Assembly: GCA_011364985.1 (NCBI GenBank)
Contig: RDOC01000004.1
Span: forward strand, 152,218 to 216,217
From: Candidatus Thorarchaeota archaeon
GTDB taxonomy: Archaea; Asgardarchaeota; Thorarchaeia; Thorarchaeales; Thorarchaeaceae
Length of the DNA stretch: 64,000 nucleotides
Direction: 5' to 3'
Of the stretch, positions 1-13,098 are shown piece by piece (the stretch's first letter is position 1; each line of letters starts with the position of its first letter). The translations under genes and the position numbers were made by a program. Under the pieces are notes generated by a model. The model ran no database searches and was not told where the DNA came from. It was given only the letters and a program-made list of their open reading frames with translations.

Positions 1-299
1 AGCTGACTCAGCTCTACAGAACGGTTCTGTTGAAGATAGGTAAGATACTGCGATCTGAGGGCAGAATAGGAATGACTATTCCAGTTATTAATTCAAAAGA
101 CGGACAACTCTCCATAGACCTTGAAGAAATGACCGCCGGAACGGAGTTTCACGTTCTCATGATGCTTCCCAAGGAGGCATTTGAGTCATCCATACCCAAG
201 AGCAAGCAACTGAAGATTACACCTGATAGGCCCGTACTTCCAGAGAGAAAGAGAGGGCAAGTAGTGGAGCGAGGGGTAGTGATGCTTGGAAGATACTAG
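1..299 (+). CDS. C-terminal part of a probable SAM-dependent (Trm11/TrmG10-like) methyltransferase, truncated by the window edge
   Basis: Frame is open from position 3 (LTQLYRTVLLKIGKILRSEGRIGMTIP), resembling the late helix/strand of RNA methyltransferases (LY...L.xILKxxGRIV..P). Confidence 0.4.
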   Translation, partial: LTQLYRTVLLKIGKILRSEGRIGMTIPVINSKDGQLSIDLEEMTAGTEFHVLMMLPKEAFESSIPKSKQLKITPDRPVLPERKRGQVVERGVVMLGRY

Positions 300-1129
300 A
301 ACAGATGGCGTATCACATCATCAATGATTGCGTAAGTCTGAAGCCGCTGGAGGTCTGACTTGACATAAGGCATTGCTTCACCAAATATCATATCCTTGTA
401 TGCCTTCTCAGGCACGGTTTCTCGAGCAGCTTTTGTCAATACTTGCAGAATCTCTTCAAGACACACCTTCAAAGCTCTATACGGGACCGCATAGACATCA
501 ATCCCAAGTACTTCAATTCCAGCCTCATCCACAGGGACATCTACGAGGAATTCATATTCCTTTTTAAGAGGTTCCATGAGTTTCTTAACACGTCCAACCA
601 GTGTTCGTCGAGTGGACTTGGGGACTTGCACCCGCATAATCGCTCTGTACAAATGACTGAAAACTGAGAGAGCATCCATTGATTTTCCAGCCATTAGACT
701 ATCATCAGTTTCCTCATATTGGCTGACAATTTCATCCACAAATTCGCCGAAGTCCTTGAACGTATCTGGTTCTCCATTCCAGTGCTCAAGGACATTTGCT
801 AGAAACTGACCCTCAGGAACCTTTTGTTTCGAGAACTCATTCAATGCGTATCGGAGAAGAAAACGCATGTGGCTTATTCTAGCACCCTTTGAAACCACCA
901 TGACAAATAGAAGGTCGTCATTTGCTTCCCAAATGTAACGATTCGTTTCAGTGTCAACCGTTGTAAGATTCTCATTAGATGCCTTATCAATAAAGGTATG
1001 AGTTGCGCTCAGAAATGGTGCAATTAGATCCATGTCGATCTCGATGCCAGAGTAGGCACGAGCCACGAGATTCCTTCCGCTACCTCGCTCAATAAGCCAG
1101 ACTCCGTGAATACATCGTCGATCAGACAT
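296..1129 (-). CDS. Longin-like domain protein with C-terminal helical extension
   Basis: N-terminal IHGVWLIERGSGRNLVARAY...DLIAPFLSATHTF...LLFVMVV...LRYALNEF fits the beta-beta-alpha-beta-beta-beta-alpha longin pattern common in Asgard archaea. Confidence 0.65.
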   Translation of the reverse strand: MSDRRCIHGVWLIERGSGRNLVARAYSGIEIDMDLIAPFLSATHTFIDKASNENLTTVDTETNRYIWEANDDLLFVMVVSKGARISHMRFLLRYALNEFSKQKVPEGQFLANVLEHWNGEPDTFKDFGEFVDEIVSQYEETDDSLMAGKSMDALSVFSHLYRAIMRVQVPKSTRRTLVGRVKKLMEPLKKEYEFLVDVPVDEAGIEVLGIDVYAVPYRALKVCLEEILQVLTKAARETVPEKAYKDMIFGEAMPYVKSDLQRLQTYAIIDDVIRHLF

Positions 1130-7460: not shown

Positions 7461-9017
7461 GTGAGCCTAGATTCTGCACATCTGTGTTGTCAAAAATGCA
7501 ATCAGAACAGAGCCAGTCATCTCTGTGAAGATTGCGGGAGCATTTTTTGCAACACCTGCATAGAAAGCAGAAACAACGATTACATGATGTGCAAGGACTG
7601 TCACTACCCAATTGATAACTCTTCTCAAGGAGAAGAGATTCTAGAGTGCCCCGAGTGTGGTTCCAAAAATCTAACTAAAGCGCGAAGAACCGAGGATATC
7701 TGCCCTCAATGCCATTCTGGTAAAATCACATTAGTGGAGGAAAAGAGGCGTTCACTTGCACAAGAAATGCGCCATGCTGTGATGACACTGCATTATGGTC
7801 CTACTAAACTAAAGGAATTCGGGAATAGACTTGATTCTGCAAAGAGAACTCTCGTATCATTGCGGATGGCAAATTTTCTGCATTATCATTGGCTCGAAGA
7901 TAAGCTCGAGGAGATTCAAGAAGAACTTCCAGCCATTAAGAATAGAATCACCAATCAAGGAGAGATAATCGCGAAACGAATGGCTGCAGAAACAAAGGGA
8001 CTTATGGATTATAATCGATGGACGCCTGACCAGTTCCCTTTCATTGAAGGGGTTACAAATAGAATATCAGAGATCGGAAGGCAGTACAAGCAGAATACAG
8101 ATGATGCATTTCAGGATTGTAAGGCGAAGCTGAAGGAACTTGTCGAACAGCTGGATGGCCTCAATTTCTATCGATCAGAATTCTCGGCCTTCTATGAACA
8201 TGTAGACCTATCTGTGGGCGAGCTTCCTGTTTGCGCACTGCCCGAAGTCAAGGTTATCGGTAGTGACTTTTTGAAACACGACAAAGCATCTGGAACGCTC
8301 TATATGACAAATAAGCGGTTGATACTCATTGCAGAAAGAGGCCTTCTCTGGAAGAACACAGGACCAGTATTTGACTTCCCCTTAATTTACCTGAACAGTC
8401 TTGAAGAAGATGGGAGATTCAGAAAAAAGCTTGTCCTAAGAATGAAGCAGGGATATATCCGAATATCCTGCAGTGAGGAGACTATGGAGGTCCTTCCGGA
8501 TTATGTGTCAATTGCAAAAAGATTCGACAAGTACGTGCAAAAAGATATGCAGAGAGTCCGAAAGATTGAGCAAGCCAACGTCAATATCAGCGATGTAAGA
8601 ATGAAGATAGAGAGTCTGGTCTACTCCCTTTTGACAGGAGATTTGGATTCTGGATACTACGGAGGACGTATAGATTCATTTGAATATCGTCCGGACATCA
8701 GGCATGGTGAACGTGGCCATTATGGAAGTGATTATGGCCGCCAAGATGTGCTGAAAGAAGAACTGAACAGAAGATTTGGCCTTGGAGGAAATGGCAGCGA
8801 TGCATCTCAATATGAATATGCTAGTTCCATTGACTCTTTGAAGAGGAGTGCCATAGAAATCCAAGATGCAATCCACGACACCATCCGTATGATGAGAAGC
8901 GGTCACCTTGTTGCGGAGGACTTCATTCGAAGATATCGTGGACTTGTTAGAGACTCATACGAAACCCAAAAGCAGATTGAACGAATTGATAGAACGAAAC
9001 ACGGATATGGTTGGTAG
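7461..9017 (+). CDS. Multi-Zn-finger/B-box + coiled-coil + PH/GRAM(GLUE)-like + Vps23/TSG101 steadiness-box-like protein (ESCRT-I-like)
   Basis: Six CxxC pairs in the first ~85 aa; long heptad region; GTLYMTNKRLIL PH/GRAM-type strands; C-terminal AIEIQDAIHDTIRMMRSGHLVAEDFIRRYRGLVRDSY resembles the TSG101 steadiness box; adjacent to ESCRT genes. Confidence 0.7.
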   Translation: MSLDSAHLCCQKCNQNRASHLCEDCGSIFCNTCIESRNNDYMMCKDCHYPIDNSSQGEEILECPECGSKNLTKARRTEDICPQCHSGKITLVEEKRRSLAQEMRHAVMTLHYGPTKLKEFGNRLDSAKRTLVSLRMANFLHYHWLEDKLEEIQEELPAIKNRITNQGEIIAKRMAAETKGLMDYNRWTPDQFPFIEGVTNRISEIGRQYKQNTDDAFQDCKAKLKELVEQLDGLNFYRSEFSAFYEHVDLSVGELPVCALPEVKVIGSDFLKHDKASGTLYMTNKRLILIAERGLLWKNTGPVFDFPLIYLNSLEEDGRFRKKLVLRMKQGYIRISCSEETMEVLPDYVSIAKRFDKYVQKDMQRVRKIEQANVNISDVRMKIESLVYSLLTGDLDSGYYGGRIDSFEYRPDIRHGERGHYGSDYGRQDVLKEELNRRFGLGGNGSDASQYEYASSIDSLKRSAIEIQDAIHDTIRMMRSGHLVAEDFIRRYRGLVRDSYETQKQIERIDRTKHGYGW

Positions 9018-9638
9018 TTATATACCTAGTTCTTTCTCTAGTTCCTTAATATCTTCCTCAAGCGTACCTATATCTGTGTCAGCTGTCATTTCGGCAGTTC
9101 TTTCTGCCAGCCCTGCCTCAACATCGAGCTCATGCATTGCCGTGGTGAGGTCCTCTGAGGAAACATCCATTGACGCATCAAGGGCATCTGATGATATGCT
9201 GCTTTCAATTTCAAGCTCCTCAAGACGCCGGGAAATCTCATCAGCATTCTCTACTAATCTTGTGGCTTCAGTTGCGTCACCGAGCATCCCAAGCAGCTTT
9301 GCCACTTCCTGAAGCGCAATATTCGTTTTGGCTGATGTTTGGGCACGGTTTAGATGTGCAAGAATCTTAAGAATCTGGAGCCTAGATTTGTCAAAGGACA
9401 AGGCAAGTCGTCGGAAGCGAATCATCTCTGTGGCATAGGTTTTGAACGCTTCACCTTGACCAGCCTTTCTGGCTCTTATGGCCCGAGCTCTTGTCTCGCC
9501 CTCCTCTTTCTCAAGCTTGTTTCGTTCACGTGCAAGCTGCTTTGCCAAGATTCGTAGTTGACTAGAGATTTCTCCAACGTCGGGTTTTTTACGCCCCCAG
9601 GAGAAGGCCTTTCTAAACGAACTCAAGAGTTTCACCAC
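9018..9638 (-). CDS. ESCRT-III (Snf7 family, Vps2/24/46-like)
   Basis: Basic helical N-half with amphipathic start, KTYATEMIRFRR pattern, acidic C-half, terminal LEEDIKELEKELGI MIM1-like helix; next to vps4. Confidence 0.9.
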   Translation of the reverse strand: MVKLLSSFRKAFSWGRKKPDVGEISSQLRILAKQLARERNKLEKEEGETRARAIRARKAGQGEAFKTYATEMIRFRRLALSFDKSRLQILKILAHLNRAQTSAKTNIALQEVAKLLGMLGDATEATRLVENADEISRRLEELEIESSISSDALDASMDVSSEDLTTAMHELDVEAGLAERTAEMTADTDIGTLEEDIKELEKELGI

Positions 9639-9817: not shown

Positions 9818-10066
9818 ATGGCATATGGAGCAGAGAGTGCAGCTATTGCGGCACAACATACGAGTTCCTACCGAGTCAAGTTCGAGAGAAACGAATTCCT
9901 AGAGCTGGTGCAAATAGCACAGCCGCAAATCATCTATCATGTGCGAAGAATGCATTTCTTTGCATACGATGGCTTTGTCATGTATACCTTCGAGTGCGAG
10001 TCTGAGGATTTCAGCCAGAAAGTGATGCATGCCATCGAATTCTCAAATATGGCGTGGAGGGAATAA
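9818..10066 (+). CDS. Small hypothetical protein within the ESCRT locus
   Basis: 82-aa ORF with protein-like composition filling the gap upstream of vps4. Confidence 0.65.
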   Translation: MAYGAESAAIAAQHTSSYRVKFERNEFLELVQIAQPQIIYHVRRMHFFAYDGFVMYTFECESEDFSQKVMHAIEFSNMAWRE

Positions 10067-10213: not shown

Positions 10214-11431
10214 ATGTCTGATAGACTAGACCAAGGACTCAGGAACCTCCTTAACAAAGCAATTGATCTTGATAGAAGAGGAATGGCAAAGGAGGCTGCC
10301 CAATACTATCTAAAGGCTAGCAAGATCTTGATCAAGCTCTCAAACGCGGCTTCATTGCCGTCTATACAGAAGCACTATCTTGATAGAGCGCAGGAGTGCG
10401 TTGATAGGGTCCGTTACATCTCAGGCATAAAGAAGAAGGCTAGAGGGCTAAGAAACGGGCTTACGACCCCAGTATCCCCAATGCCACATTCAGAATCCGA
10501 GGCAGTTGCTGAGCACGCTCCGCAGGCAGATGCGGAAGTTGATGAAGACACTCGTAGGCTTCAGGAGATGATATCTGATACCATTATCTCGGAGAAGCCC
10601 AATATCAAGATGAGTGAAGTGGCTGGACTTGAGAAGGCGAAACAGGCAATTCATGACGCAATTATAGCACCTATGAAGCATCCTGAACTCTTCAAGGGCA
10701 AGGCAAGACAACCATGGAGAGGTATTTTATTTTACGGGCCAGCAGGTTGCGGAAAGACCCTGATAGCTAAAGCTGTTGCGTCTGAAATTGATGCGACTTT
10801 CTTCAATGTATCAGCGGGTAATATTGTTAGCAAGTGGTTGGGAGAATCAGAGAAATTGGTGATGAATCTCTTTGATTTGGCAAGAAGAAGCCAGCCGGCG
10901 ATCATTTTCATGGATGAGCTCGATTCAGTTGGAGTATCAAGATCAGGAGATGATGTAGGAGGAGAAAGAAGGCTGAAGACTCAGCTGCTTACGGAACTCC
11001 AGGGTCTTGAAAGCGATCCAGAGGAGAGAATAACCGTCATAGGTGCTACAAATCTGCCATGGGAACTTGACTTTGCCTTACGGTCTCGATTTGAGAAGAA
11101 GATTCAAGTTCCACTTCCGGACAATGAGGCAAGGACACACATCTTTGAAATACATATGGAAGAGGTCAAAATTGCTCCAGAAGTCGATTATGAGGAATTG
11201 GCGGACCTAAGCGAGGGTTATAGCGGCCGCGAGATTAGCGTCGTCTGTAGAGAGGCGGCAATGGAGCCCATAAGAGATCTGCAGCGTACAGGCAGACTAG
11301 ATGACGGAGAGGTAATACTAGAGGTGCGCCCTGTTTCAAGAGAAGATTTTCTTGAGGCCATTGAAGACATCCGTCCAGCAACCTCACCAGAAGACTTGAG
11401 AAGATACACCGATTGGGCGGAGGGGTCCTAG
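10214..11431 (+). CDS. vps4: Vps4-like AAA ATPase with MIT domain
   Basis: N-terminal MIT (AIDLD..G..KEAAQYY), GPAGCGKT, SKWLGESEKLV pore loop, FMDE, GATNLPWELD, C-terminal Vps4-type helix. Confidence 0.93.
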   Translation: MSDRLDQGLRNLLNKAIDLDRRGMAKEAAQYYLKASKILIKLSNAASLPSIQKHYLDRAQECVDRVRYISGIKKKARGLRNGLTTPVSPMPHSESEAVAEHAPQADAEVDEDTRRLQEMISDTIISEKPNIKMSEVAGLEKAKQAIHDAIIAPMKHPELFKGKARQPWRGILFYGPAGCGKTLIAKAVASEIDATFFNVSAGNIVSKWLGESEKLVMNLFDLARRSQPAIIFMDELDSVGVSRSGDDVGGERRLKTQLLTELQGLESDPEERITVIGATNLPWELDFALRSRFEKKIQVPLPDNEARTHIFEIHMEEVKIAPEVDYEELADLSEGYSGREISVVCREAAMEPIRDLQRTGRLDDGEVILEVRPVSREDFLEAIEDIRPATSPEDLRRYTDWAEGS

Positions 11432-11434
11432 GCT

Positions 11435-12154
11435 GTGGACGTCAAGGAACGACGTAGAGAGCGAAAAAACACAAAGTCAGCAGAAGAAGAACGACCAAGA
11501 AAGACCGAAGGAGAGACCATAGAAAAGGAGGAGAAGACAGGAGATCAATCCAGTACGATCATGGCACTAACGGAAAGAACAACCCAGGCCACTCAGCGCC
11601 AGCTTGAAATACTGCCCACCGAAACCGTTGTGGAGGAGATCGATGAAGAGATACTACTCCCAGACTGGGGAGACATCACTCAAAGCGAATGGATGTATAG
11701 TATTCCGGACAGAGAAAAAGACAAACCAATGTGGGCAGAGGAATGGAGCGACTTTCTCTTGGAGTGGACAAAGAAAAAACACATTCACGTGATTTCTGTT
11801 TCCTTGTTCCTCAGCGAGCCACCTTTCAAAGACATTGCTGGGAAGGTAGATTCGTTTCGATGCATCGGTGAAGTTCTTGTAAAGAAGGAAATTGCCGAAT
11901 GGCTGGATAAGAATCGACGACAGCTTCGAGTCTATTGGAGATTTCTAGAAGAGTGGGCAGATTCTGTTTATCGATGGGCACTGGAAAGCGGGACAGTTCG
12001 ACTTGATGTGAAGTCAATAGTAATTCAAGAAGAGGCCCAAGCATTTTCGAATCTTCCAGAGAGAGACCTCCATATCATCATGACACTCCTCGTAGAGAAA
12101 CAACTGGCGGAATGGATTGACAAGAAGAAAGGTGCTATCAAAATCCTACTTTGA
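11435..12154 (+). CDS. vps25: ESCRT-II Vps25-like tandem winged-helix protein
   Basis: WAEEWSDFLLEW and VYWRFLEEWADSVYRWA motifs typical of Vps25; 3 nt downstream of vps4. Confidence 0.85.
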   Translation: MDVKERRRERKNTKSAEEERPRKTEGETIEKEEKTGDQSSTIMALTERTTQATQRQLEILPTETVVEEIDEEILLPDWGDITQSEWMYSIPDREKDKPMWAEEWSDFLLEWTKKKHIHVISVSLFLSEPPFKDIAGKVDSFRCIGEVLVKKEIAEWLDKNRRQLRVYWRFLEEWADSVYRWALESGTVRLDVKSIVIQEEAQAFSNLPERDLHIIMTLLVEKQLAEWIDKKKGAIKILL

Positions 12155-12194: not shown

Positions 12195-12947
12195 TCATTT
12201 GGCAATATGACCATCTTGGCTATCACGTGCCCTCAAGCCTGGGAAATAGTACCGCCCACCAGTGGAGAATTTGATATCTGCGACAGCCATGCCTGCGTCA
12301 ACAAGACTAGACAGGACCCTTCGAGCATGATCCTCAGACCATTTCAGTTTGATCATGACTTCTTCAACTGAAACATAGCCCTTGGAAGCCGCCAGATTAA
12401 CCACATCGCTTTGATCTTCTCGTAACTCAAGAGGGCGTAATTCGACAACTTTCACGCCACCTTTTAGAACACGAATTCCAGGGATTAGACCATGATCGGA
12501 AACCCGATTGACAGCCTCGATCACATCGCTGTAGCTCACACCCTTTATCTCCGGCAATCGTTTCACAACTTCCACGATTAAGTCAGCCAGCCCCATTAGC
12601 CCCTTTGAAGCATTTGCAGTGGCAACATCAAGTATTGCAAGTCCTATGAAATCATAATACTCGTCTTGCGTCAATCCATGATGAAAAAGGACTCCCTGCC
12701 TACGGTCCATATTTAGCATCCGAATAGCGTCAGGAAACCGCTCATACACGCGTTCTGTATCCAAGAACGCTGTAATGCTCATGCCAGTCCGTCGCAATTC
12801 AGCAATACTTGACTTGAGTTCCATAACAAGTGCTTCGGACTCTCGTTGAAAGGACCTAATGTCAACTACACCCATGTCGTACATCTTCCTAAGCTGATCA
12901 AGAGTAGCAAGTGATGCGTAGAACTCGGTTTGTAGTCGGCTTTGCAT
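12195..12947 (-). CDS. Fusion of Vps28 N-terminal-like domain and Vps22/36 (EAP30) winged-helix domain
   Basis: EFYASLATLDQLRKMY..F..E...L...ITAF..RFPDAIRML (Vps28-N-like) followed by YYDFIGLAIL...PLELREDQ..KGYVS...LKWS..A..VL..LV..G...YYFPGL (EAP30); likely start MQSRL at 12947. Confidence 0.8.
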   Translation of the reverse strand: MQSRLQTEFYASLATLDQLRKMYDMGVVDIRSFQRESEALVMELKSSIAELRRTGMSITAFLDTERVYERFPDAIRMLNMDRRQGVLFHHGLTQDEYYDFIGLAILDVATANASKGLMGLADLIVEVVKRLPEIKGVSYSDVIEAVNRVSDHGLIPGIRVLKGGVKVVELRPLELREDQSDVVNLAASKGYVSVEEVMIKLKWSEDHARRVLSSLVDAGMAVADIKFSTGGRYYFPGLRARDSQDGHIAK

Positions 12948-13098
12948 GGGTTGGAATCCCTTCATTCCTATGGCTGACCCAGACTGGGCATACCAAGGGA
13001 TGAGCAAGAATGTGCTTTAAGAGAGAGTATTATCCGATTATGGTTCAATAGGAAGTAGTCCCATCCAGCTGCAATGTATCTTTGGACGATGAAGAGTA

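Follow-up and report, generated by a model that had tools for sequence, protein, structure and literature searches.

A Vps28-Vps22 fusion protein of Thorarchaeia, its probable deletion origin and a proposed role as an ESCRT-I-to-II adaptor

The window analysed here, 64,000 nucleotides of a Candidatus Thorarchaeota contig (RDOC01000004.1) from a genome which is 74% complete, carries at 12195-12947 a gene in which a Vps28-like N-terminus is joined to EAP30 winged helices. How did parts of an ESCRT-I and of an ESCRT-II subunit come to reside in one chain, and what may such a chain do? A preliminary description had reported this combination and had considered it uncharacterised. The former is confirmed by profile and structure matches. 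The latter was mistaken: in their passages on Vps22, Makarova et al. (2024; mBio, PMC10936438) describe Asgard Vps22 (asCOG cog.002769) as fused to a steadiness box, and their Table S3 lists residues 1-70 of the Thorarchaeota protein KXH75178.1 as PF03997 at 99% in HHpred. The fusion architecture is already known, and the present work is a correct rediscovery with added detail.

The gene, its locus and its domains

The open reading frame reads from 12947 to 12195 on the minus strand, which the preliminary description did not mention. It is free of internal stops; the plus-strand frame of the same interval is riddled with stops. The start is the ATG at 12947, and the equivalent methionine begins 99 of 121 aligned sequences. 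Longer starts (TTG at 13007, upstream ATGs) were dropped because the homologue starts contradict them. Nearly every close homologue that has a name carries the label Thorarchaeota (57-94% identity). The features discussed below are:

12195..12947, minus strand: Vps28N::Vps22 fusion gene, 250 aa, with full-length orthologues throughout Thorarchaeia
12702..12947, minus strand: Vps28 N-terminal (steadiness-box headpiece) domain, residues 1-82, from profiles, HMMs and structure match
12669..12701, minus strand: linker (fusion junction), residues 83-93, poorly conserved
12432..12668, minus strand: winged helix 1 of the Vps22/EAP30 core, residues 94-172
12228..12431, minus strand: winged helix 2 with conserved YYFPGL tail, residues 173-240; by analogy presumably the end that binds Vps25
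7461..9017, plus strand: Znr_CC_PH_SB protein, 518 aa, predicted partner (model; family description in PMC10936438)
8808..9014, plus strand: Vps23-type steadiness box, conserved, residues 450-518 (the last 69) of 7461..9017
9018..9638, minus strand: ESCRT-III of the Snf7 family (Pfam Snf7, E 4.2e-7)
10214..11431, plus strand: Vps4 AAA ATPase with MIT, AAA and Vps4_C (Pfam)
11435..12154, plus strand: Vps25 of ESCRT-II (Pfam ESCRT-II, E 2.2e-13), convergent with the fusion gene

The gene order is thus Znr_CC_PH_SB (+), Snf7 (-), an 82-aa ORF, Vps4 (+), Vps25 (+), fusion (-) and aspS. Four other Thorarchaeia genomes were checked. Three of them share this order, minus the 82-aa ORF; in the fourth the locus is rearranged with all genes retained. 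The position of the fusion, convergent to vps25-vps4, is one often seen for vps22. The 82-aa ORF (9818-10066, plus strand) has no convincing Pfam match and was not found at the other Thorarchaeia ESCRT loci checked. A single Snf7-family gene (9018-9638) was found in the source genome, 74% complete as it is; Hatano et al. (2022; PMC9192718) have a second, unlinked ESCRT-III in their AB25 panel. Elsewhere in the window a 277-aa protein (296-1129, minus strand) has a weak longin-domain match (Fuz_longin_1, E 0.013).

The N-terminal domain is inconspicuous when single sequences are examined. A Pfam scan of the fusion protein by itself left VPS28 unmatched, and searches of its own genome with PF03997 and PF09454 gave no match for the N-domain; such searches are too insensitive and profiles are needed. 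At the family level the domain is recognised: PF03997 is matched by 39 of 64 family N-terminal sequences (best Pfam E 3.7e-5). The fusion-family profile recovers full-length Asgard Vps28 proteins among 1.84 billion proteins with E 2e-10 to 6e-8. The recovered proteins (P0339, E 2.3e-10; P0350; P0391) carry Pfam VPS28 with E 1e-11 to 3e-17 and align through profile positions 4-88 only. The top PDB match of the N-terminal profile is yeast Vps28 (2f6m_B, E 0.005).

It had been set beforehand that the N-terminus might turn out to be an ordinary Vps22 helix, or nothing recognisable. It is neither. Using hhalign the N-domain matches an Asgard Vps28-N profile at 99.5% (E 3.3e-23, 77 columns) versus 0.5% for an Asgard Vps22-N profile. 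Further, all 121 Thorarchaeia sequences obtain 26.6-64.9 bits with a Vps28-N HMM built exclusively from unfused Vps28, whereas none of 29 unfused Asgard Vps22 proteins exceeds 3.0 bits. A Vps22-N HMM, in turn, reaches at most 3.0 bits on the Thorarchaeia fusion proteins, i.e., the Vps22-type N-terminal helical region is missing.

The AlphaFold model of the fusion protein (pLDDT 80.7, pTM 0.48) has N-domain helices at 2-24, 30-53, 58-64, 67-70 and 72-82. Residues 1-82 superpose on human VPS28 as it sits in the ESCRT-I headpiece (6vme_E; 80 residues at rmsd 1.9 A, Z 11.8) and also align to yeast 2caz_E (Z 9.4); the structural match to VPS28 takes in all five helices. The earlier assignment to Vps28 holds, whereas its restriction to a helical hairpin does not: the whole Vps28-N is present, hairpin plus three short helices. 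One could also read the N-terminus as a helical hairpin of a generic, SHOCT/CdvA-like kind or as an ordinary Vps22 helix, or the fusion as an assembly artefact. This reading could draw on the unmatched Pfam VPS28 of the fusion protein alone and on a weak SHOCT match in 4 of 64 family members, yet it is refuted by the length of the profile match, by the five-helix structural match, by the failure of the Vps22-N profile and by an identical fused frame in more than 120 independent sequences. A separate observation concerns a 1008-aa membrane protein on contig C11 (L063:7154-10180), in which residues 276-334 match as a short hairpin of the steadiness-box/SHOCT kind (E 1e-3), probably a generic one.

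The linker is almost constant in length, 11 residues in 113 of 121 sequences, and residues 82-89 have a pLDDT under 50, consistent with a flexible linker in the model. Thereafter Pfam EAP30 covers residues 92-224 (E 4.9e-13, above cut-off). The best PDB sequence match is human SNF8/Vps22 (E 1.4e-15) and the best structural match is 3cuq_A, again Vps22/SNF8 (Z 14.6, 156 residues aligned, rmsd 3.7, 31% identity). The preliminary description had left the winged helices as Vps22/36. The tandem winged-helix EAP30 core is as stated, and by Foldseek it is closer to Vps22 than to Vps36 (3cuq_A E 7e-10 vs 3cuq_B E 2.6e-5; Vps36 chains are lower). The Vps36 hallmark, a GLUE/PH domain plus NZF ahead of the winged helices, is absent from the modelled N-domain, which is all-helical; a PH fold was found on the neighbouring protein 7461..9017, not on the fusion. 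Vps28-C, the C-terminal four-helix bundle, has no match within the fusion protein, in which the winged helices come after the linker. The YYFPGL motif is located at residues 233-238, and the protein does not end there, as had been written, but 12 residues further on. It is practically certain that the architecture is Vps28-N (1-82), an 11-residue linker and the Vps22 tandem winged helices (94-240).

Distribution and origin of the fusion

A survey across Asgard genomes, as the preliminary description had suggested, revealed no general Asgard trait: the fusion occurs in Thorarchaeia and, beyond them, in two sporadic cases. Of the 150 matches listed from 251 Asgard genomes, those over the entire protein are confined to the family of the window and a sister family; the remaining ones begin at position 19 or later, mostly at 60-95. 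Most other Asgard families possess a full-length Vps28; the Thorarchaeia matches listed are the N-terminus of the fusion, and full-length Vps28 was not found in Thorarchaeales. The Vps28-N profile has a single match per genome in nearly all genomes listed, and this sole copy is the fusion in 78 of 85 Thorarchaeia genomes and in the sister-family genome. Unfused Asgard Vps22 proteins start with ordinary N-terminal helices, with Pfam EAP30 beginning at residue 5.

The gene arrangement outside of Thorarchaeia is instructive. At 29 of 30 such loci vps22 lies right behind a full vps28 on the same strand, and the thirtieth stops at a contig edge; the two genes adjoin or are separated by up to about 300 bases. 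The Thorarchaeia profile divides across this pair, about positions 4-85 on Vps28 and through about 240 on Vps22. Because unfused vps22 sits just downstream of full vps28 at nearly all of these loci, the synteny and the domain content argue that the fusion was very probably born of an in-frame deletion between co-directional vps28 and vps22. The simplest reading is that this deletion likely took away Vps28-C and the Vps22 N-terminal helices. In two Asgard families a free-standing Vps28-C gene lies between full vps28 and vps22 (L070:9340-9627; L079:7851-8165).

Of the two sporadic cases, P0248 (L086:3136-4083) is labelled Ranarchaeia and is found in three assemblies. It has the same fusion layout and converges on vps25-vps4; a Yip1 gene lies upstream, and a homologue of Znr_CC_PH_SB is found at a distance of 4.5 kb (E 4e-49). 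P0250 (L089:8001-8900), from an Odinarchaeia-labelled MAG, immediately follows UEV-Vps23, and upstream there are genes for ubiquitin and RING proteins. Both have longer linkers and keep differing amounts of the segment ahead of the Vps22 winged helices; the three junctions differ. A tree was computed from Vps28-N joined to the winged helices (39 rows, 230 columns, long branches). In it the Thorarchaeia form one group (98/96) and P0250 lies within a 100/99 group of unfused pairs; P0248 is unplaced, the grouping of Thorarchaeia with Ranarchaeia being weak (38/27). The AU test rejects the union of all fusions in a single clade by a small margin (p 0.043); for Thorarchaeia with Odinarchaeia p is 0.068. 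At least two origins of the fusion are likely.

The opposite polarity, i.e., steadiness box plus winged helices as the ancestral Asgard Vps22 which was split later in other lineages and in eukaryotes, would agree with the general wording of Makarova et al. (2024; PMC10936438), with the presence of the fusion in three differently labelled lineages and with the only marginal rejection of one clade for all fusions. Yet most Asgard families have a full Vps28 (N and C) and a helix-bearing Vps22, just as eukaryotes do; the sole Vps22 evidence tabulated in that paper is one Thorarchaeota protein; the Odinarchaeia fusion is nested among unfused pairs; and the three junctions are unlike each other. An ancestral fusion is therefore very improbable. 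Fusion is the derived state, and to extend it to all Asgard Vps22, as has been published, is too broad.

A predicted partner and a proposed adaptor role

Makarova et al. (2024; PMC10936438) view Znr_CC_PH_SB (cog.011556, also written Znr_PH_CC_SB) as a likely ESCRT-I component. The protein 7461..9017 consists of Zn ribbons, long helices, a PH/GRAM-GLUE-like fold at about 256-353, a flexible region and the C-terminal steadiness box. The PH fold of the model resembles many PH domains, MTMR2 GRAM and EAP45 GLUE among them. Pfam Vps23_core is matched by 36 of 97 members of this family, and the yeast Vps23 core with E 0.028. Of 87 Thorarchaeales genomes, 82 encode the partner, as a rule no more than about 4 kb away from the fusion; no clear UEV-Vps23 emerged in Thorarchaeales with one query. 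Across three lineages the fusion adjoins a Vps23-type steadiness-box gene. In another Asgard family a Zn/PH adaptor homologous to 7461..9017 (L077:18392-20002) carries a winged helix at its end instead of a steadiness box, which is a Vps36-like domain order.

An interface between the fusion and the C-terminus of 7461..9017 had been envisaged in the preliminary description, and modelling predicts one. Two steadiness boxes together with residues 1-85 score 0.81, against 0.01 for the best of three controls, a value that may owe something to already solved cores. The mark for this score was attained by 58 of 80 solved pairs as against 2 of 110 mismatched ones. The partner has a pLDDT of 85, the runs share at least 95% of contacts, and the confident interface lists just one of the two steadiness-box copies. 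The modelled contacts comprise A11, A14, T15, Q18, L19 and L40 facing F488, I489, Y492, R493, V496 and R497. These interface residues are conserved above the rest (0.83 vs 0.64, permutation p 0.003; 0.77 vs 0.61, p 0.014), in a test which is not independent as the conserved positions partly overlap the fold core. Because ESCRT-I cores have been solved (2CAZ, 2F66, 6VME) and may have shaped the prediction, the complex score indicates likeness rather than binding. On the strength of the model, the Vps28-N domain probably binds the steadiness box of 7461..9017. In the yeast two-hybrid work of Hatano et al. (2022; PMC9192718) a steadiness-box/Vps22 interaction is named for Loki; for Thor, self-interaction of Vps22 and possible links to ESCRT-III that bypass Vps25 are reported.

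We propose the following sequence of events. The Vps28 and Vps22 orthologues of Thorarchaeia would be united in a single chain, after an in-frame deletion presumably joined the neighbouring genes and removed Vps28-C and the Vps22 N-terminal helices. Vps28-N is predicted to pack on the steadiness box of Znr_CC_PH_SB like Vps28 does on Vps23 in the ESCRT-I headpiece. The partner could supply membrane or cargo recognition via its PH and Zn-ribbon domains without recourse to ubiquitin, which was not found in the source genome (74% complete) and which Thorarchaeota do not possess according to Hatano et al. (2022; PMC9192718). By analogy with eukaryotes, the winged helices would bind Vps25, followed by ESCRT-III nucleation and Vps4-driven membrane remodelling. 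[quoted passage not shown] Binding of Vps25, for which the eukaryotic pathway and the gene order speak, is quite probable. The entire proposal, a one-chain Vps28 and Vps22 orthologue which arose by deletion-fusion, is held by a steadiness box and constitutively connects ESCRT-I to ESCRT-II, appears reasonably probable. The shape of ESCRT-II may differ in Thorarchaeia, because the lost Vps22 N-helices normally help to form the Vps22/Vps36 stalk.

What exactly was replaced deserves attention. The preliminary description had the covalent fusion substitute for the interface of Vps28-C and Vps36-N. The fusion is real, but a full-length Vps36 was not found in Asgard archaea by Hatano et al. (2022; PMC9192718). 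Thus, what disappeared from an adjacent vps28-vps22 pair was Vps28-C together with the N-terminal helices of Vps22, rather than an interface between Vps28-C and Vps36-N.

The fate of Vps28-C itself leads to an alternative. The canonical Vps28-C profile found nothing credible in 87 Thorarchaeales genomes. Total loss of the domain was nevertheless withdrawn as a claim, since a marginal match (L065) exposed an unlinked Vps28-C-like family. This coiled-coil protein (L065:1486-2172, minus strand; L094-L118) has a C-terminus that weakly resembles Vps28-C (hhalign 61%, E 8e-5, 44 columns; controls under 1%). It is present in 80 of 87 Thorarchaeales genomes; among the near-complete genomes the count is 24 of 24. 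Its gene lies away from the ESCRT locus, and a search of the source genome (74% complete) did not reveal it. Searches with Pfam Vps5 (BAR) left the family undetected, and Atlas searches returned unnamed or own-family clusters only. It fits the BAR-Vps28 protein reported for Thorarchaeia (Eme et al., 2023, PMC10307638; Makarova Table S3, PMC10936438), matched by description, not by sequence. Conceivably, then, the bridge is real and this coiled-coil/BAR protein additionally recruits ESCRT-II non-covalently, so that domains were reshuffled, the N-half of Vps28 having passed to Vps22 and its C-half having stayed on another protein, and a regulated link was kept. Its wide occurrence and the contrast with the hhalign controls speak for this reading. 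Against it are the shortness and weakness of the match, the location of its gene outside the ESCRT locus and the removal by the fusion of its likely docking site on Vps22, i.e., the N-terminal helices. We consider it rather unlikely. Still, because a weakly Vps28-C-like domain persists in so many genomes, the non-covalent route from ESCRT-I to ESCRT-II may not be fully lost in Thorarchaeales, and the fusion may be one among several ESCRT-II inputs.

Another alternative takes Vps28-N mainly as a replacement of the Vps22 helices for self-association, either as a homodimer or with an EAP30 paralogue, without any link to ESCRT-I. This paralogue of about 770-810 aa (P0264, P0262; L085:5447-7879; L119-L121) has an Ig-like (CarboxypepD_reg) match and keeps weak Vps22-type helices ahead of its winged helices. 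It occurs in 52 of 60 Thorarchaeales genomes searched and almost nowhere else, and was not found in the source genome (74% complete); it could be a Vps36-like stalk partner. Apart from the paralogue, the two-hybrid self-interaction of Thor Vps22 and the packing of steadiness boxes in homo-oligomers such as the Odin Vps23 dimer (Hatano et al., 2022; PMC9192718) are in line with self-association. Yet the conserved face of the N-domain is confidently modelled on the neighbour's steadiness box, the fusion lies beside such a gene in all three lineages, and self-association and ESCRT-I bridging are not mutually exclusive. As an exclusive function self-association is improbable.

A bolder version of the adaptor proposal is tentative. 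The fusion would have arisen two or three times by vps28-vps22 deletion (Thorarchaeia, the Ranarchaeia MAG, the Odinarchaeia MAG). In Thorarchaeia, together with Znr_CC_PH_SB, it would constitute a two-protein, ubiquitin-independent ESCRT-I/II; adding Vps25, ESCRT-III and Vps4 could then rebuild the smallest ESCRT pathway that is still complete. If this is true, Vps28-C and the Vps22 N-helices serve only to link the two complexes.

Comparison with known systems

The SB-Vps22 of Makarova et al. (2024) shares lineage, architecture (PF03997-like, then EAP30) and the Thorarchaeota ESCRT locus with our protein. They extend the fusion to the Asgard Vps22 family, whereas the present survey finds it in Thorarchaeia and the two sporadic cases, and their passages on Vps22 offer no deletion origin, partner or bridging role (PMC10936438). 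What is added beyond the literature, the lineage restriction, the deletion origin, a possible recurrence and a testable partner, is of modest value. It narrows the published generalisation: SB-Vps22 is derived and lineage-restricted, neither the Asgard norm nor the eukaryotic ancestor. In the manner of a 'Rosetta stone' the fusion suggests that ESCRT-I and ESCRT-II of Asgard archaea are linked through Vps28-C and the Vps22 N-helices, and it names a small set of proteins for a ubiquitin-free ESCRT in vitro.

Such proteins have been handled before. The yeast two-hybrid panel of Hatano et al. (2022; Nat Commun, PMC9192718) contained ThorAB25_09030 as 'Vps22' and ThorAB25_08990 as 'SB', in addition to Vps25 and ESCRT-III. 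By inspection of the printed sequences these are the orthologues of 12195..12947 and 7461..9017, respectively. In the description of the panel ThorAB25_09030 is taken as a plain Vps22 and Vps28-N is not mentioned.

With eukaryotic Vps28-N (2CAZ, 2F66, 6VME) the fusion has the fold in common, and a similar packing on a Vps23-type steadiness box is predicted for it. Unlike eukaryotic Vps28 it is devoid of the C-terminal four-helix bundle, and its presumed partner bears no ubiquitin-binding UEV domain but Zn ribbons and a PH fold instead. With eukaryotic Vps22/SNF8 (3CUQ_A, 1U5T_A) and unfused Asgard Vps22 it shares the tandem winged helices and the C-terminal tail, whereas Vps28-N stands where the N-terminal helical region was. 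A parallel is the UEV-Vps23-Vps28 protein of Heimdallarchaeia (HeimAB125_14070; Hatano et al., 2022, PMC9192718), likewise a lineage-specific fusion among the adjacent vps23-vps28-vps22 genes. [quoted passage not shown]
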